Shown here in pieces: positions 23,701 through 43,159 of a stretch of 44,969 bases of DNA (positions are counted from its first letter, which is position 1; every line of letters starts with the position of its first letter). The translations under genes and the position numbers were made by a program. The stretch comes from Atractiella rhizophila (Eukaryota), in NCBI GenBank assembly GCA_021432655.1, contig MU271300.1:1-44969 (forward strand), in the 5' to 3' direction. The notes below the pieces were generated by a model. That model was not told the DNA's origin. It made no database searches and saw nothing but the letters and a program-made list of their open reading frames with translations.

Positions 23701-25860
23701 AAGCTAAATGCCCTGAATTCGGCTAACCTATATGCCTAGCTTCTGCAACTGTTGGTACCGTGGAGCCTCGTTCGCTCGTTGAACCTTTGAGACGGATCAT
23801 TGCTCGACTACGAGGGCATTATCTCCAGGCCCGATGTGTGGATATCGACATGGCCAACCGACTTATCGAAGTGGAAACGATGACTGGATCTGCTGTTCGA
23901 GGAGAAACACCTGGACAGGTGAGTTGTCTTACACAGGCATGGAGCTATGGCTGATGCTTCCGCAGTATGAACGCTTTTATGTTCCTGTAAGTATACTTCA
24001 TATACATGATGAGAGATTCTGATCGCCTCGATACAGTACGATAAATGCGTTGTTGCCGTCGGCGCCATTTCGAATACCCACGGAATCCCAGGAGTTGAAC
24101 ATTGCTTTCAGCTGAAGACCATCAAGGATGCGCAGGAAATTCGACGGCGTATTCTGAACAACCTTGAGATGGCAGTGATGCCCAACACAACAACAGAGGA
24201 AAGAAAGGTATGCCATTGCATCGCTCGCCTCGACGTGTCCTAATTAATACAACGATAAGAAATTGTTAAGCTTCGTCATTTGTGGTGGAGGTATGCAAAC
24301 GGCAGTGTCAGTCTCATAGGCTAAAGGTATTTAGGTCCTACCGGTGTCGAGTTCGCGGCCGAGCTCTGTGACTTCATGAATGAGGATGTGATGCGTTTCG
24401 TGAGTGATTCTCCTGAAGAATAGCTGAAATTTAATTGCAATGGGTTTAAAAGCTGCCCAAGACAATCCGCAACGACGTAGAGATCACGGTCATCCAGTCC
24501 CGCGACCACCTTCTCAACACATATGCTCAGACAATTTCTGATTACGCTGAGAAGCGATTCGACCGCGAACACATCAACACCATCCTTAACTCTCGCGTGA
24601 AGGAAATCACGCAAGGGTCAGTCACCTATTCCACTAGGGCATCAGATGGAACGTGGACAGATTCTACTCTGCCTACTGGATTTGTGCTCTGGAGTACTGG
24701 TATTGGTGCGACCTCTGCTTATCATGTTGCACATCGCGTTAACGAAAGCGATAGGCATGAACCCAGTGACAAGGCGAATTGCAGATAAACTACCCAACCA
24801 AGCCCATTTGCACGCTCTGGAAGTGGACTCCCATTTGCGAGTAAAAGGCGCACCCTTGGGCAGTTTGTACGCTATTGGTGATTGTGCCACCCTCGAAACC
24901 AACCTCGTCAGCTATCTCCTGGATCTCGTCAAGCAGTGTGATGTTAATAACGATGGACACATTGATTTTGAGGAATTCGAGAAGATGATGGTCATCGTGA
25001 AGCGCAAGTTCCCGACCAGTGCGTCCCTTTTCTTTCCCCTCGCCCTCATTGTGGTTTATGTGACCGCACAGGCACCATCCATGTTGAGAAGATCAAAGAC
25101 GTCTTTGACCAATACGATCAAGATAAGAATGGGTCGCTGGACATGGACGAAATGACACATCTCTTCCAGGCCGTTTCCGCTGACATGACTTCTTTACCAG
25201 CTGTAAGCCACTTTTCCATCCATCGATAAAGTATGCCCTTGTTTCTTATCGTGAATGGTCAGACTGCCCAAGTCGCAAAGTGAGTATCCTTTACCTGATA
25301 TTCGTAACCTTTGCTCATTGATCGTTCAGTCAACAAGGCAAGTGGCTGGGTAAAAAACTTTCGAAGCTGGCAAAGAGCTCGAATAAGGAGCTTGCCAAGG
25401 AGGTGGACGACGTCGACGATATTGTTTCGGTGCGTTCTCTTCTCCACTGCACACCCAAACTGACCAGATGGCTAAGGATCCATTCGTATACAAACATCTC
25501 GGATCACTGGCTTACCTGGGCAACAGTGCTGTCTTCGACTTTGGTGGGAAAGGTATCTTCGACATTTCTTCACCATCCCTGCTCGCATACTGAAGAACAT
25601 CTGCAGGATTTGCTGGAGGTATCATTGCCATGTATCTTTGGCGTTCCATCTACTGGAGCGAACAAGTCTCGCTGAGGACACGAGCGATGTTGATGGTCGA
25701 TTGGTATGCATTTCCTTTCGNNNNNNNNNNNNNNNNNNNNNNNNNNNNNNNNNNNNNNNNNNNNNNNNNNNNNNNNNNNNNNNNNNNNNNNNNNNNNNNN
25801 NNNNNNNNNNNNNNNNNNNNNNNNNNNNNNNNNNNNNNNNNNNNNNNNNNNNNNNNNNNN
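20708..25860 (+). CDS. NDE1: Mitochondrial external type-II NAD(P)H dehydrogenase with EF-hands; internal 2039-bp duplication as assembled, last exon presumably in the N gap
   Basis: Arg-rich presequence, ERGGPKNLP, LVVLGGGWG, NYNLFTPLLPSATVGT, FVICGG|GPTGVEFAAEL, YAIGDC, EF-hands DVNNDGHIDFEE and DQDKNGSLDMDE, LPA|TAQVA|NQQG and YLWRSIYWSEQVSLRTR. Resembles the Neurospora Ca2+-binding NDE1 class. Confidence 0.92.
21228..25304. repeat. Direct tandem duplication, 2039-bp period (21228-23265 and 23267-25304)
   Basis: The ORF track repeats at +2039. The first ~1 kb appears identical and the remainder has scattered substitutions. A single A separates the copies at 23266. Confidence 0.97.
25721..25860. 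other. Assembly gap (140 N)
   Basis: Run of N immediately after a donor site (gtatgc, 25704) of the NADH dehydrogenase. Confidence 1.
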
Positions 25861-26501
25861 ACTCTTTCCTCTCACAAGCCATAATTATCAACTTATAATA
25901 GGTAGTCTTGCTAATCGACTTCCGCTTGAATAAGTGTGACGTGCTTAATGATCTGACGCCTCGACGAAACGGACAATAATCCTGCCTTCGTCGTTCTTTG
26001 CTCGTTTCTTATCTTCAAAATAGTCTAGGGGTGTGTAGTTGCGATTTGTGGGGATGGTCGTGTCAAAGAAGTGCAATAAAAGTACATCCGACATCCAGAA
26101 TGCCGTACATTCTTTGACGTTGAACGTGAACGGAACTTTGACCCGCTGGCTTTATTTGTGTTGAATGTTGAGCAAGTTGAGAGTTGGAGAGAGTGACGCG
26201 GGTCGTGCGATGTTGGACGAAGACTTGAAAAGGTGGTACATGACGGATGGGTTTTGTCCTGTACTTATATTCGAGCATTATCCGGGTTTCGAAACAGGTA
26301 CTTAGTTCCCTTCTGTGCCTCTTGACGAAACCTGTGAACAGTTATGGACGACGACTTTGGAACAAAACTTTTCTACCAATCTGACGATGTTGCTTTAGAG
26401 GTGTGTGGGGATGGCGACGCAGGCTTGAAACTGTTCCATATGACACTGCAAAAATGACGGTTGCTCTGAACAAGGATGAATGGATTTCAGAGATCTAAAC
26501 T

Positions 26502-27113
26502 CTATGCTGTCGGTCGAACAGCTGCAGGATCGTCCCTTCCGGCATAAAAGGATTCCATGAACGTGGTCGGTTGGGCTGAAAGAGCACGGATAAGTGAAAT
26601 GCGGCTTCAGAGCAGTAAAGATATTACCAGGTGCCTGCACGCAAACATGTTAAATTTTGTGGAAAATCAAAACACAAGAGGGAAGACGTACCTCCTCAGC
26701 CGCGAACCAACGCATAACATGAGTGTCCATCTTCCAAAGGTTTAGAGTCTCCTGAAACTCCTGATGCCCCTTCAAAAGGAGTACATCCACGGCTTCAAGG
26801 TCCTTCACCTCCTTGTATTTGTCGAATTCACTCCGAATCTTCGCCCGGATGACGGAGGGAGGAAAAGGGAGCGCATAGAGGGATACAATCTCCGGTGCAG
26901 CTGTTAGATATTATCCTGAGCGGCTGTATTCAGGAGATTGGCCCGCATACCTCGGTACCAGTCGCGATAGAGGCCACGAACTCTTGCCCTCGCAACTGGC
27001 CAGGAACCTGAGAACCCAATCAATTTTTGCGATAATGTACCATGCAGATGCTTACCTGAGACTTGGGCGGCTCTCGCGAGCCTTGAAGGGATTGCGGAAG
27101 AGAGAGCTGACAT
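26502..27113 (-). CDS. NDUFA6: Complex I accessory LYR subunit B14 / 14.8 kDa
   Basis: MSALSSAIPSRLARAAQV..ARARVRGLYRDWYR..APEIVSLYAL..IRAKIRSEF..VDVLLLKGHQEFQETLNLWKMDTHVMRWFAAEE|AP|AQPTTFMESFYAGRDDPAAVRPTA*. Confidence 0.94.
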
Positions 27114-27188
27114 GGAAGGCAAGTTTCGGCAGAAAAGGTGATGGAAGTTTCGACAGATGTCACGTGTACCCTGAGGGGAAACTTGATG

Positions 27189-28799
27189 AGTAAGCATTCA
27201 AAATCTTCCCCAAAAGACAACGACCATCAGCAGAAGCAGAAACTCGGTTTCAAGGGAATCAGGTCTATCTCAGGACTTTTCCCTTCTCGCGAGGGGATAA
27301 TTCTCTTTTCCCAGGCTCATAGGGCACGCGAAAGCGCAACCGAAGGCTAAAGAACAGAGTTTTATTCAACTCAGTCCTTTCCATCCCATCCCTCCCTTCC
27401 GTCCATCTCTGGTCAGATCGAATCTCAGACGTCGAGGAGACAATCGGAAATCATTGGCTGTGGTGGAATAAGTGGCGATATTCGAAAGGTACGTCTTGTC
27501 CTCGCGATTAAGGAGTTGTGTGGTCTGCGGTTCGGTCTGTTCCGGGTGAGCGCGCTGACTTGTCCTTCCCCTTTCTCCCGATCAATTTAGGATCGTCGCC
27601 ATTTGACCATCAGAATCAGTTTCTCGAGACCTCTCCCACCTGTCGGGATCGAAAACCGTACTCCCATCTCTTGTTACGACCGTTGCACGCCCTTCGGTGG
27701 CAACAATCCAACCCATCGCCGAAGGCTAGCTCTTCTTCTCTCCTTTGTAAATCAATTGAATCCACACCACAAATCGCCTATTCGCGCATAACGACCAAAC
27801 CACACCAAATTCTTTTCCTTTCAGAGGCTTGATATTCGTTTCAATAACACCAAGGCTTATTTCCGCTTGCAACAACACTCATCACGACCTTCTTCACGCT
27901 GTTTTATTTCCTCGTTTTTGAATCTTCTAGCTTTCGCTGATCATTTCAGTCCTTTTCCTCAAAACCTGTTCAAACCTTCTATTCTCGAATCTTTGCGAGT
28001 CTGTCACATCATATCCCTCTTCGGTTCCGATTCAGTAAAGCGGTCGAAAGCAATAAAAACTTGTCTCCCTTTCATTTTGTCTTTTCTTTCTTTAAGTAAA
28101 TCTCTTCGTCACAAAAAAGCAGAAAATTAAATCAGTTATTGGTTATAACGGTTCTAGCGCTTTTTTGAGATTTTTGGCTTCGAACTTGGTCTGCTGTTTG
28201 GGTTCCCTATAACTTCGCATTATATCGGCTTGTGACGCGTCTCTTCTTATCTCAGGTCTATCGTACGTCCGTTTCCTCTTTGAATTGTGGCAGCTGTTAA
28301 CATTTCACGACGGAACAGGATTTCTTTATTCGCATAGAATAACTTTCATACCTCCACCTCACACATTTTTTCAAGCCTTCGACCTAACGTCTCAGAAGTA
28401 CTCGCTTTTGGTAAACGTCATCCCGAATCAATCTGGCGTCGACAATTCCTTCTCGCGATCTCTGAGGCACCTCAACACATTCATCAGGTCCAACCGGACC
28501 AATAGGGCGACAGCTCTCCTCGAGACGGAGAAGAAGTCTAGACATCTGTAGCTCTCTGTCCCCATCACACTTTTTATCTTTATAAAAGAGCCCGCTCCAT
28601 CAGTTATTAATTCAGCGGGACCCTTACCTATTTCTTTCACTCCGATTATTGCCACCATCTCGGTAATCGTCTCAACTTCGCTCGTTGTTCGGAGACACTC
28701 ACGAAAAGAAGCCCTTCGAACCACGGACCGCTTTTCTGGAGTTGTAGCTTTCGGTAGCCTCGTTTGGAGTCACAGTCAATTGATTTCACCAATTTCAAG
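27189..28799 (+). promoter_or_regulatory. Promoter and long ATG-free 5' leader of the cyclin gene, with two putative UTR introns
   Basis: Manual scan found no + strand ATG in 1611 nt. Intron-like segments at 27489-27590 (gtacgt..gctgac..ttag) and 28263-28318 (gtacgt..gttaac..acag). Confidence 0.7.
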
Positions 28800-30954
28800 A
28801 TGACGCATCCATACAACAATCCTTCCCCACTCGCGGTCGCCGATATGTTGCCCCCAGGCATATGGTCACCAGCCGTGCCAGGTTCTGGTCAGGCCGACTA
28901 CTTCTTCTATCACCCTTCGCAACCTTCTGCTTTCGCGCCGCACCGAACTTGGAGCAGGAACGTTTGGTCGCCTCCCACGTCCACGGGTGGTCATCAACCT
29001 CCTCCATACGGCTTTTTCAACACGTCCCTTCCCCCTGCCTTTCAGCCGCAACTCCCAACGCAGCAACAAAGGAACGCGATGAAGTGGCAACCGAGTTGGA
29101 ATACTCCCTCAAATACGAGGAACATTGGGATGCAGACTGCAACTCAGCCACAGCAACAGCAACAGCAGATGTTTGTTCATAATCATGGACAGCCATCTCA
29201 AACCCCTTGCTACGCTCCTCTCATGTCTCACAGGATGCCAGCAGCTCGACCGTTCAAGTTCCATCCTCAGTTTCAACAGAACGCCCGAACCTATCAATCA
29301 CCCCCATTCGGGATGGGACTCGCGGTCGCACCAGCATATGCTGCCGCTGGAGCGATGTTTTACGATCCCCCTGCCAATCCTCCCCCTGGATTCGGATACC
29401 CCCACACCAATGGAGCAATGCAACCTCCGCCGCCTTACCGTCCTTTTGAGTATCAACAACGATATTATACCCAGGCACCCGTCGTCGACGATAAAGTTGT
29501 GGGAGCATATGCTTTCCAGTTTCACTCTCGGCCTGCCCCTCCCCCAGAAGTTGACAACAGCCCTTGGGATCATGATGTCGAATATTCACAGCCGTTTAGG
29601 TTGCAGGAGAATGGACCAATGGGTATCACAGCGCAAAAGAATGCAGGTTTCGGAGTCGTCGGTGATGGAAGAGAGCGGACGACTGTCGGACACCCGGTGC
29701 AAGTGGAGGGATTAGGACCATTCCCAGTGGATGAGTACGATTCTGGTAGTTGGGACAGGTACAACAACAATGCTTATGGTATGCTTTGTTCTCTCGCATC
29801 CATTCATAGCACACTAATGATTGTATGTGACAGATGAACACGAGAATACCTATGCTAGGTCGAGGAACGCAAGAGCTCCTGCACCGCTGCCTGAACCCTA
29901 CGTCGAATATCAGCTTGTGCCCACAAACGTCAACCCAGTCCTCCCTCCTCCTCCAATTGAAAATTCGGCCGTTCCTCTGTCGTCCTTTGCAGCAGATTTG
30001 ATATGGAGCTTCTGTTGTTCGGCATATGAAAAGCGCCACTTTGTTCAAGTTCCCGCGAAAACCACCGTCTATACCCCTTTTGGCGTTATCGGCCAGGAGA
30101 CTGCTACGAGGAGGAATTCAATGTCGGAATGTGCCAGTGTCCTCACTTCTCCTGCCAGCACTGCTCCTGGAACTCCTGTGGATCAGAACGTCATGATTCC
30201 CTCGGGAGATATCAAGGCAAAGACTGAGGACGAGCCGTCGGTTTTCCCAGAAGACTTTGTCTATTCTCCCACGACCGATGTCAAATTTAAGGCGTTCGCC
30301 AAAAAGATCCTTACCCAGACTCTGCTTACACCCACGGTTTTACTCCTCGCCTTGTCCTACGTCGAGAGGGTCACCACGAGCCAGAATTATCCGAAAGAAC
30401 TGGAGTCTCCATACAGACTCCTCGTTGTCGCTCTCATGACCGCCAACAAAATCCTCGACGACAATAGTTATAGATCGGAGACATTCGCGATGATTTCGAC
30501 TTTTACGCTGTCGAAGTTGGACTCTTGGGAAGCGAGCTTCCTAAAAGTTCTCGACTTTAAATTGAACTTGGACAGGTCAGAATGGGCATGTTGGGTGAAC
30601 CAGGTGATCGACAAGAAAAGGCAGTCGTGTGAGAAGGACACAAGAGGAGACGAGTTGTTGGCCGAGGCGTTGGAAGCTGCCGAGAAAGACGCGTCGACGA
30701 AGAAAGCAAAGAAGGAGCACCCATTCGTAGGACAGCTTCTGTTCCCAATCTTCGATAACCCAGTTGAGGGCGAAGATCTTGATGACGAGGAAGGGCCTAT
30801 CAAGTCGCCTCACAGACTGAAGAAGCGAACGACGTCGGACACCAAGCATACCCTTTCGAGATTCGGTGAAGACTTAACAAACCATATTCCCAGATTGTAC
30901 GTCGATAACTACCTCTTTACGCACTCAGCTGACTCCTGCTGTAACAGCGTCTGA
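28800..30954 (+). CDS. Pho85-type (Pcl/Clg1-like) cyclin with long P/Q-rich N-terminal low-complexity region
   Basis: Cyclin box KILTQTLLTPTVLLLALSYVER..YRLLVVALMTANKILDDNSY..WEASFLKVLDFKLNL. Intron 29779-29834 joins the two ORFs in frame. Confidence 0.85.
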
Positions 30955-31776
30955 TTCATTTGCGCCGTCAATGTAGCATTAGTATCCCCAGCATTTTTCA
31001 GTTCATGTCTCTAGTGCCCGTTTGGTTCCATCCAGGAAAACAAGAAAAACGTGGAGAAAAAAAGGATAAACGAAGGGTTTCAAACACTATTACCTGTTAA
31101 TTGCCTCTTGTCTATGAGATTGTGGCTATTGATTGCTTCGTTCCCGAATCACGTGTTCACTTATCTAGTTCTTACGTCCCCACGTTCTTTCTTACACTCT
31201 TTGGCTGGTTACCACAGTATCGTTTTCAGACTCATGCCTGCTGCATCGTAGTTTACTTCACTTTCCCATTCCATGGACGCCAACCTTTCGAGTGGGTTTC
31301 TGAAGTAGCATCTGTCTTTCGCAAGAGCTGCTCGTTTTGAGCTCTACGTTATGTTCTGGTATGTTTCCTGTGCAATTGTGAATTATGAACGGTGCCTGCA
31401 CAGAACCTGCTGAGGCTATACCTCGATGCTCCCTACTGTATTGTAACTGCCCCACTGTCCTTCACAGGAACTGGAGGCGACCGGATCAAACAAAATTCAA
31501 ACAGTTGAGCTCCTTCAGTGGAAAAATAAATATTAAATCAGGATCAATCACAACCGCACCTCCCTTATCCTTCCACTAGCTTCCACGGGTGTGTTTTGAA
31601 AGAATTGACGAGGCTGCATTGAGTTCGCAGATCGGAAGCCTGAACCGAACTTTCCCACTCTGGTGCCAGGATTTTGGTAGAAAGCAACGCGGGCGAAGTT
31701 GGCTGCAAAACAAAAGTGCTCTGTCTTTTCTCTCTTTCCGACTCCTCAAGCACTTACCAGAGATTAGGGCTGGAGA

Positions 31777-34548
31777 ATGTATTATCGACCCTATTCCCAT
31801 AACCATCATCACTGGAGCTCACTCCCACGAGCTTTAGAAGATCTACCCTCCAGTCCCCAGCCTTCAAATGATAACAGCTCTTCAAGTTCTTATCCCACGA
31901 CGTCGGCTTCCTATCCAATCAATCATGTGCATCCTTCCATATCCCAACTTGAGGCCGTCTTCCTACAAAGCATCGGACTGCCGCCATCGCCATCCTCTGT
32001 CACACCGCCCCGAGCGAACACACCACGTCTTCGTGAAGCCCTCGAAGTGTGTGATCAATGTATCGATGACGCCGCTGAATGCATCTGGTCGGGCTCAAAT
32101 GAACCAAAAGTCGTTGCATGTCAACGCTGTTTACGACTGAAACAGAGATGCACTTCTGAGTATTATTTATTGCTTGCCAATACAAGGAATGAACGGCAGA
32201 CCAATAAATTGTTCGTCCCCACACGATCCTTTGATCTACCTCCAGCCATCGAATTTTAATGATTTGCAGGTCTTTAGAAGAAGAAATCCAGCAAATTCTG
32301 GCTTCTGTCCAAGATTCGAGCTTTCAGGCTCAGGGTCCCCCATTGAAGAAAAGATTTCGCTCGTTGTACCGTCAAGCTGAAGATTCGAACTTGCGACCTA
32401 GCAGTTCCTCAAATCGGCTGAAGGATGTTGAGCTAGCCAAGAGCTTGAGCTTTGAGCTTGTCAATGAGAGGTATGCAGCACTTAACAAACTTCCTCTTTG
32501 ACAGAAGCCGCAGTTTGACACGACAGCCCGAATTGTAGGTGCAGTTAACTCTTAACCAATACTAACAAAACTGCAGTATGTTTCTGCCTTTATATGAGGA
32601 CCTACCCAAAGCGTTCTGGGACAGTGGTCTCAATCCCAAGAAGATGGGAAAGCATGCGTCCGTCTCCTTCCTTTCATTCCACCTTTTGACTTTTTTTCTC
32701 TAGCGACGTAATTATCGCGACTTTATGTGCCCGAGGTGAGTTCAAGTACAAGGTACAAGTGTCTGTGCTAAAACCATACCAGGTTCCATGTCTTCTACCC
32801 ATTCTTCAATTATGCCACAAGGGTCGCCTTCCTTAGCAACTCTAAAGCTGGAAGGAGACTTACGACAATATGGGGAAATACGACAATCGAAGGTGGAAGC
32901 CCTAGTCAACTACACATTAGAGCTAGTGGAAAGTTCCGGCCTTTTACGGGAGAGTAGTCTTGAGGGCCTCATTGCCATTGGTCGGTGCCGGTAGGATTCA
33001 GAGTCGCGCAGTTTTGATGTTTTGGTCCACAGAAAATCTAATCCAACTCCTTGTTTGTGAGTTCTCAATAAGCCGTGGCTGTCGATTTCTTGACGATCTC
33101 AATTGTAGGGTGCATGGGACGATATGAACAGATTGCTCTCCGCTTGCTCATTTTCCACGTTCAGCAGTACCGTGAGCTCGTGGAACAGGACCGGATTTCG
33201 AGTCGCTTGAAAGAGCTATTTTGTCAAGATATTTTTGTGTGTTTGCTAATTTCCCTTAGCCCAGCCTAAAATAATCACTCGTGGTGCAGATCCGTGACTC
33301 TCAAATTGCAGGGAGGATGCGCCGCGCTCCATTGCTGTCAGCACATTTCCTCGTATCCTGATATGAGCTTGAAGGGTGACGCAGAAAGGATGAAGACATT
33401 CAATGGATGATGGGAGGAACACGTTTTCAGCTCGAAACCTTCACCACTAGGTAAAACACTGTCCTCCTGTCTAGGATTATTTGTAACAGTGTTCGATCCA
33501 GTGCCTTCATTCAGACCTTAGATCCCGCAAGTTTTCATCATCACATTCTCCAATGTAACCACGCTGCGTTGGACCGAGAACTTCTCACTTTGAGTGCGTT
33601 TTCGAACGTTACATGAAACTCTCCGCTCATGACAAATAGGTTCAAGGTTAGCGAACTCGGATTCGGCAACCGCAGAAGGGATTCTCGAAGATATGTTCTC
33701 TCGCTGGTCCCGATTCGATGTTTGGTTGGAGTTACATTATGCACAAGCTGGTAGAAAGATCGGCCCTGAAAATGTACCTGAAGGCATGTGGGATGGGTGA
33801 GAGATTCCGTCCACTCCCCTCATGTTCATGAGCTTATGAGGTCCTTTTAGTTTGCGACCACTGCATACTTTTGCGTTCCAAAGTCGCATGCTTTTTGAAT
33901 ACTTCTCTGACGTCGATTGGGCACAATCGAAGTTCAACTCATTCCCATTGATCATGAGATGGTCGAAAACGAAGAAACTCGTTGCTCAACTGATTCACAG
34001 CCTTGCTGCCAAACTACGAATGCATCTAGACGTGATATTCTCTTGATTCTTCTTGCAAAGACACACTGAGCGACGTTTAGAATGCTGGCCCGGTCGGAAC
34101 TCCAGCAAGTAATGCACGCGTGACAGCGTGTTGGACCCTCACACGCTTACCAGGAGGAACGTCCTATATTGCGCGGTATATTCTCCAGTTTGTCTACTTC
34201 GCGAGACCCTGTCTTATGTCCAATGGCAGCTATCTCGACGACGAAGACGATGGTTTCAGTCGTACACAGAAGCTGGAAGATATCGGATGGATCCTGGAAT
34301 GTGTGATCTGTTTATCCAACGTATGAGCCGCTGAACTGATGGACATTCTGTTAGCAATGCGACCTACAGGTTTTTTAAACGCTAGATATGGAGAATGGTC
34401 CACCGTGCTGGAGGAATCTCTGACGAGAGCGCTCACTTTGGCTCCCGAGAGCTCGTTATCAGAAAGGAAGAATGACAGGGAAAGAGAAATCGTTCCTATG
34501 CATAAAAAAAGAAAACACCATGAAGGTGAAGGGTGCGAGACACAGTAA
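31777..34548 (+). CDS. Multi-exon protein with an atypical Zn2Cys6 cluster (putative transcription factor); TGA at 34324 in this copy
   Basis: CDQC-x6-C-x12-CQRC-x6-C at 32050-32151, then many short exons bounded by GT..AG. Internal exon structure was only partly resolved. Confidence 0.6.
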
Positions 34549-36054
34549 AGTATGACCAAGCTAGACCTGTTGCTTAAGAGGCTCTCGATGAAGCAACATA
34601 TAGACCTTGTAATATCATTTCAGACCACCGAATTCTCATAGTTACTCGTGTGACTAAACAACAGCATCACAAGACGCGGTCGTCGAATTTCGAAGAAACA
34701 CAACGTTGGAAGGGACAGCAAGCAACCTGCACGTGCCGCCGCAGCATACGCGACGTGTTTTGTCACGTTACTCGATAATCCAAGGATTCATTAGAGTCAA
34801 AGGCAGCCATAAATATTTCGCAACTCCTCTTCTTCGAATTTTCAGCTTCAAGCAACCCTGAACAATGCCACCACGTCGAGCAGCAGCAGCTAGAGCGAAC
34901 GGAGGAGGAAACAAGAGCGAGACTTTCCAGGGGATTGAGGATCGTGGTCTCTGGGACGTTCAAGTCGATGTTTGTTACCTCTCTTTACTCTGGATTGCAT
35001 GCTGACAGCCATTTTGTTAAAGTAATCAAACAGCTATCTCAGCTCTTATTACCCAACACGGTGGAACGGTTCTCAAGACCGTTTCTTCGAAGGCGGACGA
35101 CCCAACACATCTCGTAACAACTTCCGCGGAGTACTCAGGCAGCTATCTCGACGACGAAGACGATGGTTTCAGTCGTACACAGAAGCTGGAAGATATCGGA
35201 TGGATCCTGGAATGTGTGATCTGTTTATCCAATGTATGGGCCGCTGAACTGATGGACAATCTGTTAGCGATGCGACCTACAGGTTTTTTAAACGCTAGAT
35301 ATGGGGAATGGTCCACCGTGCTGGAGGAATCTCTGACGAAAGCGCTCACTTTGGCTCCCGAGAGCTCGTTATCAGAAAGGAAGAATGACAGGGAAAGAGA
35401 AATCGTTCCTATGCAGAAGAAAAGAAAACATCATGAAGGTGAAGGGTGTGAGACACAGTAAAGTGTGACCAAGCTAGACTGACTGCTTAAGAGGCTCTCG
35501 ATGAAGCAACATAGAGGCCTTGTAATATCATTTCAGACCACAGAATCCTCATTGTTACTCCTGTGATTAAACAACAGCATCACAAGGCGCAGTCATCGAT
35601 ATTCGAATTTCGAAGAAACACAAACGTTGGAAGGGACCCTAGAACTGCACGTGCCGCCGCAGCATACGCGACGTGTTTTGTCACGTTACTCGATAATCCA
35701 AGGATTCATTAGAGTCAAAGGCGGCCATAAATATTTCGCAACTCCTCTTCTTCGAATTTTCAGCTTCAAGCAACCCTGAACAATGCCACCACGTCGAGCA
35801 GCAGCAGCTAGAGCGAACGGGGGAGGAAACAAGAGCGAGACTTTCCAGGGGATTGAGGATCGTGGTCTCTGGGACGTTCAAGTCGATGTTTGTTACCTCT
35901 CTTTACTCTGGATTGCATGCTGACAGCCATTTTGTTAAAGTAATCAAACAGCTATCTCAGCTCTTATTACCCAACACGGTGGAACGGTTCTCAAGACCGT
36001 TTCTTCGAAGGCGGACGACCCAACACATCTCGTAACAACTTCCGCGGAGTACTC
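34225..36054. repeat. Direct tandem duplication of ~915 bp (34225-35136 and 35138-36054)
   Basis: Covers the last exon of the Zn-cluster gene, the intergenic region and the PARP 5' end. SNPs and small indels lie mostly in the first half. A single A separates the copies at 35137. Confidence 0.96.
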
Positions 36055-37618
36055 TGCCCCTAAAACGGCGAAGACAAAAGATGTCATTGCACTCAAAGAA
36101 GCAGGAAAGGACGTGAAGATTGTCAGTCTCGAATGGCTGAATAAGTGCGTTGCAGAGGAGAAGAAGGTGGACGAAGCGGAATTTGAGGTGAAACAAGAAG
36201 GAGAGGAGGATGAAATGCAGGTTGATGCTGAGGAGAAACCAAAAAGCAAGCAAGCTGCGAATGGAAAAGGAAAGGGGAAGAAGCGTGCAAGATCTCCTTC
36301 GCCTGTCGAAGACGAAGAAGAAGAAGAAGAGGAGGAGGAGGAGGAGAAACCTGCCAAACCTGGTACGCTTTTTTATGTGGTTAAACATTTCTTATTTATT
36401 GGTCGGCGGTATATGGGCTAAAGAACCTAAGATGGTTACGAGAGTGACGAAAAATAATGTCGCTGTGGACGAGATGTTCAGTCAAAAGAGCACGTTTCAC
36501 GTTCATGTTGATCCCGCGACGGGTGTACCTTGGGATGCGAATCTGAACCAAACAAATGCTGGGAAGAACAATAACAAGGTGCCCTACTTCTTTCACTAGG
36601 TTGCACTGCTAACTCCTCCAGGCAGTTTTACAAGATCCAAGTTCTCAAATCCGATACTGGTAACAAGTTCACTTGCTTTACTCGATGGGGTCGTGTTGGT
36701 GAGGTACTTGGTATCCTTTTCACTTCTTTAACCGCAACTGATAAAATGGATCAGAATGGACAAAATAAGGATTTAGGCGGAGGGACGGAACAAGGAGCGA
36801 TCGCTGAGTTCCAGAAGAAGTTCAAGGACAAGGCGAAGATTCCTTGGGAGCAACGTTCTTCTTCGGCCCCAAAAGCTGGTGTGGTTTCTCTCCGATTTCG
36901 CCGCTGAATGCCATGTTGATGAATGTAGGTGCATACACTTTTATTGAGATGGCGTACGATGCCGAGGAAGAGGAGGCAGAAGAAGAAAGACCGGCAAAAA
37001 AACAGGACACTAAGGAAAGGAAGGATACTGTCTCGACCCTCGATAAGAGGGTGCAGGAATTGACTAAGTTAATTTTCAATACCGATACCATGTTTGTCCC
37101 TTTTTTCTAGGTGACTTTATTTCTAATCATGTCTAAAGGAATCAAGTCATGAAGGAGCTCAATTACGATGGTGGGCTTTCCATCCTGCCCCCCTGTTGGT
37201 ACAACGGTTGAGGATGTGAACAGCTAACAAACTCCCTCTTGGCAAATTGTCGAAGAATACCATTTCCAAAGGCTACGAAGTCCTCCGTCGCATCGCCGAT
37301 ATCCTCGCCACAGAAATAGATGATAGGGAAGAAGGCTGGGCATCCGAAGTGTCAACATTGACGGACAACTATTATACCTACATCCCGCACGCCTTTGGGA
37401 GGAACATTGGCCCGAGAATCAATCATTCAAAGATTTTGAAAGATGAAATGGATCTTTTGGACAATTTGAGCGAGATGAAGATCGCAGAGAAGCTCATGAA
37501 GGAGTGCGCTTCTCCCTTTGCAGGCTAATGAAACGGTTTTGACCTTAGTTCATGCAGGGTCGAACCCGTTGACGAACATCCCCTCGACTCGCAGTTCAAG
37601 ACGCTCAATTTGGAGTGA
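35783..37618 (+). pseudogene. Poly(ADP-ribose) polymerase (BRCT-WGR-regulatory), frameshifted near the start and lacking the catalytic domain in this window
   Basis: BRCT (LRIVVSGTF, QHGG, THLVTT, IVSLEWLNKC), WGR (LNQTNAGKNNNK|FYKIQV..TRWGRVGE) and regulatory domain (LPLGKLSK, YYTYIPHAFGR, LLDNLSEMKIA, HPLDSQF). Recognisable similarity stops at about 37615. Confidence 0.85.
36314..36346 (+). repeat. (GAA)5(GAG)6 poly-Glu tract in the PARP linker
   Basis: Read directly; encodes 11 Glu. Confidence 0.9.
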
Positions 37619-37619
37619 A

Positions 37620-40600
37620 CCTCCGGGACTTCTAAGAGTTGCTCGTTAGAGATCAATAATTACTTCTCTTTTACAGTAACCCGTTCCCTGAGTAACTAAA
37701 TGAATCCAGTATAACAGCTGCCGTCTCCTTATGCTTGCTTAGGGCTATTTCAGCTATTCTAGGAGTCAACCGGTTGAGGACGGTGATAGTGACTGCAGGC
37801 TCCTAAGTAGTTAGACCGTTGAATAATATTTGCAAAGCAAGGCTTTAAGAGAGTATAGTACAGCGGGGAGATGCTAGATTGGTACCCTCGAGGTTTCTTT
37901 GCTAGCCGCTAATAGACCTGAGTTCTAACAGTTGTTAGGAAGCTCCGCTATTTTGTTACGGATTGCTGGTGTCGAGAAGAAGCGGTAGGTGCGGGAAAGA
38001 GGGGTAAGCAATAGCTGACGCTGCGAAGTCCTTCTTTATATCCTCGCCAGGATGTTGTCCTACTTCCACAGTTGAAGTATTTTCCTGTTGGGAAGCTGGA
38101 ACAGTTAATAAGCTTCTGCAAGTTCCTCTTCTTGGAAGCCGGTCAGCGCATGCTAAGTTTCTGCAGATAGAGGATGCCTCGTCTTCATAAGCCGTGTTCT
38201 CTCCCTCAACAACCGATATCACGTAAGCAATTTCGTGACCTCCCCTATACACCTTCCCAGCGGATAGAACCAAGCATGTCTAGTGCTTAGAGAAATTTAT
38301 AAAAAGCGAGCGTTTCCGTGCAGAGCTCTTCTGAACGGTCTAAACACCTGCTTTAGCTTGTGAAGCTGCAGCTTTAGTAAATGTCCGGGCCTTCTTTGGT
38401 CGACCGCCGACTGCGGAACAGGGCTGCTCTTCCTGAAGGACTGCAAGGGCTGCTGCTATGCGTATGAGGTGAGAAACGTCGGGGATAGCTAAGTAGCCTT
38501 AGTGGAGAGTGGAAAGGACTTTTCAAGCGTAGCCGTCGTTAGAGGGACTTCTTTTATCTCCTCCTAAACTTCCCTCCTTCCTCCTAGCTCCTTAATTGCT
38601 TATTCGCAAAGGAGAACGAGTTGCCACTGAATAAAGCATAACCTTACCTACCCTTTGTAGAAGCCTAAGGATGGTGGCAGCTCCTGCGACAGTTCTAGCG
38701 ATGTCGATAGGTGGTTCTGAATCCTGTAAATCGGCGGGCAAGCTGTCACCTTGTTTAAGTTAATGCAGAGACCTGCGGAAAGTTAGTGCTGGAGCGAGTT
38801 ATGCAACAGCTATCCACATGGCTTACAGTTAAGGAGCTGGTAGTGGCGTAACCGGGAGTTGGCGAGGTAGGAGAGGCCGGTAGTGAGCGAAAGCTGAAGA
38901 CCAGAGAGCTGAAGCAACCGGGGGAGGGCGAGAGAGCTAGTTTCTTGGTCATAGAGTAATGGCGATAGCTAGTACCGTGGTTGACCACGAAACGCTGACG
39001 GGATGGTTCTACGCTGCTTCTTAGCCGACAGGTCTACCAGTTCAATTAGCAAGTTCTTGCTCCTTTTGGGTCAGCTTATGAGTGCCTGTTGCCTGAGGTC
39101 AAAGATCCTGACATGAAGGTTTGGTGCAACGCGGCAAATCCTTAAGTCGTGGAGTTCTGCTGGGGAATGGTAGGTGTCTGGTTGCCTGCTTAGCTTGCCA
39201 AGGTAGTCTGTAAGCAACCTTAGGAACGTGCCAAGACGAGGGGTCCTTTAGTCCTGTTCACCCTACTTAAACAACCTCTGCGGAACAACCGGCATGCTCG
39301 ATTGTTCTGAGCTTGCAAACCTGTAAGCGGAAAGAAGGAGTTGAAGCCAGTCCTGGGACAGGAGGGGAGACTAGCTGGGGTAGGTTAGAGAGGACCGAGG
39401 TGGCTTGTTACAGAGTGCTTCAGTTCGTTCTAGTTATAGCTGCTTCGCTTATGCAGGTGCTAGAGTGTCTGCAAGCCCGAGCTCGAAGGGTTGCGCGAAA
39501 ACTATAAGCTCTTGCTGCTCGGGTCCTAGCTCTGCTTGAGATGCGACTGGTTCCTAAGTAGTAACCTCTGAATCACGACGCTACCTTGCTGTCCGCACGT
39601 TTGTTCAACGTCGGATCTACCCTACCTGGCAAGTTCTAGTTTCCTTACCGCCTATTGCCTTGAATGGTCGACCTCTGTTGTGTGCCAATACACAATTCCT
39701 GCGAATAGTTACCTCTTTTCGACTTTAACAAGTCTTGTTTTGTAAGATAATGCTTAGGCCTTGAGACCATAAGCTGTGTTGCTGACGTTCGAGTTCTAGC
39801 TTACCGGGTCCCTAAAGCAGGCGGAGGTTAGCAACCTGGAGTTGGTGGAGCGCAAACCTGAGGAGGAGGTTAAGGTGCTGATGGATGAGGAGGAGGTGGT
39901 GTAGGCTGAGGCTCTCGTGGGGGATCGCGAGGAGGGCAAGGCGGGTCAGCAGGTGCTGGTCAAGGAAGCTGAGCTCAAGATGCTTGAGCTGGAGGAGGTG
40001 GGGGAGGAGCAGGAAGAGGGCGAGGGGCAGGAGTCTGCAGCGCTGTTGGTGCTCGATGAGCGGTCCTCCATGGACTGTTGGTGGTCGCGGGACTTGGAGA
40101 CGCTTATGAGGAAATGCTAGTCCTGCAAGGCGGTCACGTGGAGCTGTAGATCTGTTAAGGTCTTAGATTTTCTACAGTTGCTGTAGACCTAAGTTACATA
40201 TTTTAACACGCATAAAGTGGAAAGCAGCACGAAAACTCCATATCTAAGGGCATTCGACATATGCTCGCAAAGTATATGATCTAGCCCAAAAGGGAGAGAT
40301 CGTGAATAAGGAACGAAAGATTATACAACAGAATGAGAAGGAGACAAGAGAAACCAGAGACGCACGGGGCCAACACATAGACAAACTAAGATAAAGAAAA
40401 TAGAAAGGTACTCGGACTCTACCGAGTCCAACTCTTCCCCTACTACACCTATGCTACTGAGGAGGCAATCTCAGTACCAAGGGCAGATGACGAAGCTGTG
40501 GTGAAACCCCTTAAGGGACAGGAAGGTTGTGGAGAAGAGAGGGGTAGTAAGAGGGGGAGTAACGTTGTAAGTCCAGTGCGTAATCCACTAGGACATTACT

Positions 40601-43134: not shown

Positions 43135-43159
43135 NNNNNNNNNNNNNNNNNNNNNNNNN
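43135..43159. other. Assembly gap (25 N, true size probably larger)
   Basis: Sequence resumes mid-exon of MED4. Confidence 1.

Follow-up and report, generated by a model that had tools for sequence, protein, structure and literature searches.

We analysed a 44,969-nucleotide (nt) stretch of the basidiomycete Atractiella rhizophila (Pucciniomycotina), positions 1 to 44,969 of contig MU271300.1 in assembly GCA_021432655.1, which we refer to as the window. The region of interest, from 27189 to 28799, contains no ATG on the plus strand and leads directly into the start codon, at 28800, of a gene for a PHO80-like cyclin. We consider it very likely that this region is the footprint of a very long, spliced 5' leader of the cyclin mRNA, from which AUGs were removed by purifying selection. 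From the RNA contigs described below, it is a spliced leader of at least 1.17 kb, with a full length of probably about 1.4 kb. The AUG deficit is specific to the strand, to the exons and to the leader, and the trait recurs in orthologs.

A sequence-only reading of this DNA had claimed that the plus strand lacks ATG from 27189 to 28800, that CAT is common there and that the stretch is rich in pyrimidines, and all of this held under exact counting. No ATG had been overlooked: the computed count was 0 between the flanking ATGs at 27186 and 28800, over 1611 nt that contain no N. The resulting gap of 1614 nt exceeds every other in the window, on both strands, the runners-up being ATG-free runs of 426 nt on the plus strand and 572 nt on the minus strand, in a window that holds 768 ATG and 682 CAT in total. 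Across all windows of 1611 nt the median was 28 ATG, and the minimum outside the ATG-free run was 11. A uniform composition would give 25 ATG (1611/64), and the actual base composition (T 495, C 442, A 383, G 291; 58% pyrimidine, 18% G) would give 21.2. A first-order Markov model returned an expectation of 11.1, which is too low because the absent ATGs themselves deflate the model. Under a conditional null, in which the probability of G after [CGT]T is 56/397, 13.8 ATG were expected and P(0) was 3.4e-7. The region holds 98 AT dinucleotides, of which 44 are followed by C, 37 by T, 17 by A and none by G.

Among the 64 trinucleotides, ATG is the most under-represented in the region, the lowest other count listed being 6 (TGC). 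CAT occurs 29 times against 29.9 expected, which makes the deficit strand-specific. The other NTG codons were found at observed/expected counts of 18/15.0 (CTG), 9/8.9 (GTG) and 29/20.9 (TTG), and two further AUG-like triplets at 44/38 (ATC) and 17/12.3 (ATA). These counts bear on the possibility that chance, or a mutational or compositional bias (low in G, rich in T, resembling repeat-induced point mutation, RIP), produced the run with no selection on AUG. It is true that the stretch is only 18% G and that the Markov expectation is just 11. However, 0 of 2000 dinucleotide-preserving shuffles reached zero ATG (mean 11.1, minimum 2), and the conditional P(0) is as small as given above. Moreover, CAT, CTG, GTG and TTG stand at expectation, whereas RIP would hit CA and TG on both strands alike. 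We regard chance or bias as a scarcely tenable explanation, and the orthologs considered below speak against it as well.

Logan contigs from four sequencing runs were placed on positions 26100-31600. Runs X2 and X4 are metatranscriptomic, X1 was guessed to be RNA, and X15 is of unknown kind and high depth. Contigs derived from RNA covered 27189-28799 in 4/4 runs. A single 3684-nt contig from X2 comprises 27468-27486, 27589-28262, 28319-29777, 29833-30896 and 30948-31414, so that the leader is continuous with the cyclin coding sequence, and an X1 contig likewise passes through leader exon 3 into the coding sequence. On the plus strand, leader exon 1 occupies 27231-27488, with an uncertain 5' limit (contigs reach 27231 in X4 and 27468 in X2). 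Leader intron 1 follows at 27489-27590 (102 nt, GTACGT..TTTAG), its joint 27486->27589 (cut +2) being present in X2, X4 and X15. Leader exon 2 (27591-28262), represented in X2 and X1 contigs, is a core that is poor in G (10-16%), rich in pyrimidines and weakly folding. Leader intron 2 (28263-28318; 56 nt, GTACGT..ACAG) has its joint, 28262->28319, in X2, X1 and X15. Leader exon 3 (28319-28799) extends to the start codon and includes TATAAAA at 28581-28587 and an in-frame TAG at 28755-28757. Neither leader intron contains an ATG.

Each leader joint was thus present in 3/4 runs. Because both joints are GT..AG on the plus strand, while those of the divergent neighbouring NDUFA6 gene are CT..AC, we infer that the leader is transcribed on the cyclin strand. 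The two well-formed plus strand introns proposed from the sequence are therefore spliced out in RNA contigs, and the proposed 5' untranslated region (UTR) of more than 1 kb is borne out by a mature leader of at least 1174 nt counted from 27468, or about 1411 nt if the start is 27231, in one contig with the coding sequence. Contigs and splice joints were both seen upstream of the TATAAAA at 28581, which the sequence-only reading had singled out as the possible site of a dominant downstream start. The most upstream contigs are 27231-27430 (X4) and 27091-27268 (X15, low depth); they place the 5' end of the leader within about 100-150 nt of the NDUFA6 start, in agreement with the suggestion that the promoter region lies near that gene. 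The structural proposals of the sequence-only reading thus held wherever they could be checked. The 5' end of the X1 contig runs on into a loose end consisting of adapter-like sequence and then exon 1 letters. As a separate observation, two X15 contigs have a loose end (A, then T's) at the leader intron 2 donor, 28263. This sequence has no template anywhere in the window and is possibly an artefact.

A full HMMER scan for homologs of the cyclin returned 1085 proteins at E <= 0.001 and 125 at E <= 1e-10; word-indexed searches found no protein beyond the A. rhizophila cyclin itself. The best homologs have 600-730 amino acids (aa) and the same architecture, and come from Rhodotorula, Sporobolomyces, Puccinia striiformis, Pseudohyphozyma and the Microbotryomycetes; they have in common a PPPPPIE.SAVPL motif and a similar N-terminus. 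Metagenome contigs were scanned with the homolog alignment, yielding 26 loci in 12 groups. Ortholog start codons were validated by the common N-terminus. At 9 loci (L001, L012, L013, L017, L018, L021 and L024-L026) no start codon was identifiable, L012 and L017 belonging to groups with informative members. Four groups are transcript-like, being spliced relative to genomic DNA or differing by a retained intron.

The leaders of these four groups, the ortholog comparison that the earlier reading had called for, are 683-1077 nt long. The shortest (L002; nearest named homolog from S. blumeae, 66%) has 683 nt and 0 ATG. That of L006/L003/L020 (nearest named homolog from P. striiformis, 65%) has 771 nt and 1 ATG, which opens an upstream open reading frame (uORF) of 6 codons. 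That of L008/L009/L011, three contigs from different assemblies with an identical first base, has 994 nt and 0 ATG, and that of L010 has 1077 nt and 1 ATG, in a start-stop uORF. Over their summed 3525 nt there are just 2 ATG, whereas composition predicts 37.3 and the conditional null 19.1; by Poisson arithmetic P(<=2 | 19.1) is ~1e-6. The two upstream AUGs (at 205 in L006 and at 57 in L010) open the uORFs MSSDNI* and M*, respectively, both near the 5' end. Minimal uORFs near the 5' end are thought to permit re-initiation. The 3' parts of the same contigs are normal, with 51 ATG against 47.8 expected.

The genomic locus L014, which is 87% identical to L002, has three leader introns by alignment with L002. 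Its only ATGs within 1 kb of the start codon, 2325 and 2332, both lie in leader intron 1 and none lies in leader exons, which, as predicted, indicates selection on the mature long mRNA. Two further genomic loci have few ATGs in their last 1 kb: 2 in L004 (Rhodotorula-like), where 6.9 are expected, and 1 in L019, where 8.6 are expected. Judged by eye, ATG 1016 of L019 and ATG 4865 of L004 fall in plausible GT..AG introns; the automatic intron finder made no call. Chance or bias is disfavoured further by these orthologs, whose leaders show the depletion again while their 3' parts and one leader intron are free of it. The leaders themselves could not be aligned: in leader-vs-leader blastn no match exceeded 17 nt (E >= 0.011), and tblastx gave nothing convincing (E >= 0.003, in low-complexity stretches only). 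Leader length is thus conserved without sequence, which suggests that length matters, or else the combination of a distal promoter and leader introns. By these sequence comparisons, orthologs in other lineages of the Pucciniomycotina carry spliced leaders of 0.7-1.1 kb that are poor in AUG, and leader length combined with freedom from AUG is apparently an old, maintained trait of this cyclin gene.

The same data must be set against a promoter-based explanation. The concept of the mammalian ATG-desert promoter is reportedly due to Lee et al. 2005 (Genome Res). ATG deserts are kilobase-scale ATG-deficient zones at mammalian core promoters of the dispersed or TATA-less kind (as cited in PMC5580651; papers given here by PMC number are cited for parts of their text). 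In this sense, transcription starts would be dispersed or alternative across the 1.6 kb, one of them after the TATAAAA at 28581, the region being ATG-free because every isoform then encodes the same protein, and the long leader would be one isoform, perhaps a minor or condition-specific one. As in mammalian ATG deserts, a kilobase ATG-poor zone lies at the 5' end of a gene and the protein is the same whatever the start site. The concept is established for mammalian dispersed promoters (PMC5580651), a TATAAAA stands 219 nt upstream of the AUG, start sites are invisible in contigs, and the contig 5' ends are unequal (27468 in X2, 27231 in X4, 27589 in X1). On the other hand, the splicing of each leader intron in 3/4 runs means that far-upstream starts are used in several independent samples. 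The identical first base of L008/L009/L011, 994 nt upstream of the AUG, points to a defined distal start in that lineage, and the ATGs of L014, tolerated in a leader intron and not in leader exons, point to selection on the mature mRNA. Unlike the mammalian zones, the one described here is fungal, is an exonic leader with introns of its own, abuts a neighbouring gene at its 5' edge and is known from contigs, which show no starts. We think dispersed starts possible but rather unlikely as the explanation; they would be compatible with a long AUG-purged leader.

Several observations weigh against the interpretation as a purged long leader. Contigs, being assembled, are no proof that one molecule spans the leader and the coding sequence, and neither start sites nor strand nor level can be read from them. 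They would be compatible with a shorter isoform, which may exist, with its start downstream of the TATAAAA at 28581. If the X15 contig at 27091-27268 belongs to the cyclin transcript, it adds ATGs at 27112, 27141, 27157 and 27186. Taken singly, several of the ortholog leaders, being C-rich and AT-poor, are weak evidence: the conditional P(0) is 0.32 for L002, 0.07 for L014 and 0.02 for L003, compared with 3e-3 for L010 and 5.5e-4 for L011. In L004, L019 and L022 the ATG-free run nearest the start is not significant, and these GC-rich contigs have longer ATG-free runs elsewhere. In the paralog-level match L022/L023 no depletion is seen past 528 nt, and 1 kb holds 6 ATG where 7.5 are expected. 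The exceptionality of the run within the A. rhizophila genome rests on 45 kb. Finally, a homolog of NDUFA6 lies beside the cyclin ortholog in 0/26 metagenome loci, so the head-to-head layout is unconserved and a shared promoter layout is no family trait.

This neighbour, the divergent NDUFA6/LYR-family gene, has its 5' exons at 26691-27113 on the minus strand, with introns that read CT..AC on the plus strand. Its coding start is at 27113 (CAT at 27111-27113 on the plus strand; MSALSS...), and it matches PF05347 at 26.2 bits against a cut-off of 24.8. RNA joints were found at 27005->27054 and 26900->26951. A further joint, at 26576-26691 (minus strand), skips 114 nt with 5 extra letters (8 in a variant), which suggests a micro-exon or alternative splicing. 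The intergenic space between the two genes is 1686 nt. Outside the ATG-free run it has plus strand ATGs only at 27141, 27157 and 27186, all at most 75 nt from the NDUFA6 start. On the NDUFA6 side the CAT-free run extends only from 27114 to 27194, and the two strand-specific ATG-free zones meet at about 27190.

Such a layout raises the possibility of a separate non-coding transcript upstream, either promoter-associated or a long non-coding RNA divergent from NDUFA6, that overlaps a short-leader cyclin mRNA and was merged with it by the assemblers. Divergent non-coding RNA is frequent at bidirectional promoters, and a contig across two features does not prove one transcript. However, there would be no reason for a one-strand purge of AUG over 1.6 kb in a non-coding RNA, and the same layout recurs as single contigs in four other lineages. 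Since the NDUFA6 neighbour is absent at those loci, the leader is independent of that promoter. We therefore consider a separate transcript very improbable.

The content of the A. rhizophila leader was examined for other features. It contains no AUG-initiated uORF (0 ATG), and no AUG is made by splicing at the leader junctions. All three frames of the mature leader are closed, with 14, 17 and 7 stops, and an in-frame TAG lies 42 nt before the cyclin AUG. The first AUG of the mRNA is therefore the start of the conserved cyclin open reading frame (ORF); it has A at -3, and the N-terminus that it opens is common to the homologs. A Pfam scan of six stop-to-stop ORFs in the leader found no family at or above the curated cut-off, the sole match listed being DUF4559 (E 0.061; 13.2 bits against a cut-off of 27). 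Rfam gave 0 matches over 26900-29000 on both strands at E <= 1. Of the 13 windows of 150 nt folded along the mature leader, three (leader positions 1-150, 201-350 and 1001-1150) had z of about -2.3 to -2.5 and the others -1.4 to +1.9; we claim no structure for the three. The core folds at -10 to -24 kcal/mol per 150 nt with z of -0.5 to +1.9, a stability not above that of shuffles. Repeats in 27100-28850 were just short two-copy families of 12-26 nt, which we judged to be chance.

These results also bear on the idea that the leader is a platform for internal or cap-independent entry, for RNA-binding proteins involved in localisation or storage of the mRNA, or for non-AUG uORFs, its freedom from AUG being a side condition. 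Conservation of length and not of sequence would fit such a platform, the pyrimidine-rich core could bind pyrimidine-tract proteins, and the near-cognate triplets TTG, ATC and ATA are not depleted. Against it, the blastn and tblastx comparisons of leaders revealed no conserved motif, peptide or structure, Rfam was empty, and the folding z is mostly near zero, apart from the three windows mentioned. In addition, internal entry would not require the entire leader to be free of AUG. We judge a platform improbable.

If instead the region is a scanned leader purged of AUG, as we favour, its properties may be explained as follows. After loading at the cap, 43S complexes would scan through the entire leader until they meet the first AUG, at 28800. 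Any AUG within the leader would draw ribosomes away into a uORF and leave the mRNA open to nonsense-mediated decay (NMD), and purifying selection would therefore have removed every one. The G-poor, pyrimidine-rich and weakly folding core would keep the leader scannable. Its length would tie synthesis of the cyclin to scanning capacity (helicases, eIF4F) and hence to growth or nutrient state, providing dosage control without uORFs. Such length-dependent control of dosage through scanning capacity is our best guess for the length of the leader, and we give it about an even chance. Scanning of the entire leader and the removal of its AUGs are inferred from the scanning model together with the literature, and the regulatory role of the leader is putative.

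Long regulatory leaders are found on fungal cell-cycle and developmental genes such as CLN3 and GCN4 of S. cerevisiae and UME6/EFG1 of C. albicans. Leaders of the CLN3/GCN4/UME6 type act via AUG-initiated uORFs or inhibitory structure. The cyclin leader resembles those of CLN3, GCN4, UME6 and EFG1 in being exceptionally long and in belonging to a dosage-sensitive regulator, here a cyclin. Unlike the CLN3/GCN4 type, it has 0 AUG, and its orthologs have at most one minimal uORF (0, 1, 0 and 1). Regulation, if any, would take another route than uORFs, such as length, helicase dependence or bound proteins. A bolder proposal sees the intron-bearing, AUG-free leader of this PHO80-like cyclin as obligatorily long (0.7-1.4 kb) and ancient across the Pucciniomycotina, its length and lack of AUG being conserved and its sequence not. 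It would act as a uORF-independent length gate through which cyclin synthesis follows scanning and helicase capacity, and with it growth or nutrient state, a functional counterpart of the CLN3 uORF built in the opposite way; we put this forward as speculation and find it doubtful. To our knowledge, leaders of more than 1 kb are rare in fungi, and those of regulators usually work through uORFs.

Depletion of upstream AUGs is, by contrast with the length of this leader, a known rule. Across 478 eukaryotes including 242 fungi, none of the other 63 triplets has a 5'UTR/3'UTR observed/expected ratio as low as that of AUG (Zhang et al. 2021, PMC7889888), and Cryptococcus mRNAs that contain upstream AUGs are NMD-sensitive and translationally repressed (Wallace et al. 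2020, PMC7049704). On average, fungal leaders are much shorter than 300 nt, with 84 nt in S. cerevisiae and more than twice that in Cryptococcus (PMC7049704). In line with the cited parts of PMC7889888 and PMC7049704, ATG is lost here from one strand of a transcribed leader, other triplets, the 3' UTR and an intron being unaffected. As in the 5' UTRs treated in PMC7889888, the AUG-like triplets TTG, ATC and ATA stand at or above expectation. The present case differs from the general rule in that the loss is complete over about 1.4 kb and in that orthologs from at least four other lineages have retained the long length. The suggestion of the sequence-only reading that this might be undescribed regulation consequently holds in part: AUG depletion of leaders and ATG deserts are already known, and the novelty lies in how extreme the length is and in the fact that orthologs conserve it. 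A keyword-level literature search found no description of the A. rhizophila leader, of this cyclin gene family or of the family's leader.

The ORF at 28800 encodes a 721-aa hypothetical protein, BT69DRAFT_1296528 of A. rhizophila (P0001, 100% identity). Coding exon 1 (28800-29778, plus strand, as for all exons and introns of this gene) starts with MTHPYNN..., a family-type N-terminus, and encodes a P/Q-rich N-terminal region that matches no Pfam family. A 55-nt coding intron follows at 29779-29833 (joint 29777->29833, cut +1, GT..AG, in 4/4 runs). Coding exon 2 (29834-30896) carries the PPPPPIE.SAVPL motif and the PHO80-like cyclin box. According to the RNA, the last intron spans 30897-30947 (51 nt; joint 30896->30948, in 4/4 runs), and the last exon with the 3' UTR spans 30948-31414, to the end of the X2 contig, with a normal ATG density (8 observed, 7.0 expected). 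Exon 2 scores 47.1 bits against Pfam PF08613 (PHO80-like cyclin; cut-off 21, E 4.3e-12) and 32.5 bits against PF00134 (cut-off 23). By sequence, the nearest solved structure is cyclin-Y 9r2i_D (E 7.6e-4), and no Pho80 structure was among the solved-structure matches at E <= 0.01. The protein had been called a Pho85-type cyclin, and this assignment stands at the level of the PF08613 family; 'Pho85-type' is a reading of family membership alone, from which the partnership with a Pho85/CDK5-type kinase is likewise putative. The protein resembles PHO80-like cyclins (PF08613) and metazoan cyclin Y, its best solved relative, in having a cyclin box above the cut-off. It differs from them in its P/Q-rich N-terminal extension of about 470 aa and in the PPPPPIE.SAVPL motif, which is present in 11/11 aligned Pucciniomycotina-type homologs and is family-specific.

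The C-terminus of the cyclin presents a separate point. The RNA splice 30896->30948 gives a protein of 682 aa ending in ...IPRFV*, and the deposited 721-aa model (C-terminus ...NTITC) requires an acceptor 29 nt further on (AG at 30975-30976). A terminal Cys is common to 7/11 aligned homologs. The two ends may reflect alternative use of 3' splice sites or a mis-modelled end.

Some further observations concern the remainder of the window and the sequencing runs. A 351-nt ATG-free run on the plus strand, 31426-31777, starts 12 nt past the end of the cyclin contig (31414) and ends at the ATG of the next plus strand ORF (MYYRPYSHNHHH...). It resembles an ordinary AUG-free leader, and it suggests that the signature of AUG-free leaders is general in the A. 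rhizophila genome. Between 34588 and 36035 we noted a tandem duplication about 918 nt apart, with identical ORF starts (MPPRRAAAARANGG...) after ATG-free runs that end at 34865 and 35783; near-identical BRCT-like ORFs, at 34779-35461 and 35697-36421, lie ahead of a WGR/PARP-like gene. The plus strand of 37577-39768 is poor in CAT (and thus has few minus strand ATGs), with 8 CAT in about 2.2 kb and few long ORFs; the 1611-nt window from 38276 has 6 CAT against a median of 25. This stretch could be another long AUG-poor leader on the minus strand, or a non-coding stretch. Runs of N (assembly gaps) occur at 25721-25860 and 43135-43159, and a stretch of 24-26% GC at 25600-26050 flanks the former. 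Half or more of the sampled words from 26300-31300, a single-copy fungal locus, were present in 16 runs, and 20 rows had some part. Those 20 rows come from 14 studies with labels of at least 10 different organisms, and the contigs differ from the window at few sites. Close strains of A. rhizophila thus seem to be widespread in samples of other organisms.

Should the leader merely reflect a distant promoter, our finding would be a tidy annotation point and no more. The signature itself, a strand-specific ATG-free run that ends at a start codon, correctly predicted a long spliced 5' UTR in this case and is usable to find unannotated long leaders in fungal genomes. An AUG-free leader of about 1.4 kb that has kept its length in distant relatives despite free drift of its sequence is a clean natural test of scanning processivity, and it equally tests whether leader length alone can be a regulated and selected property.

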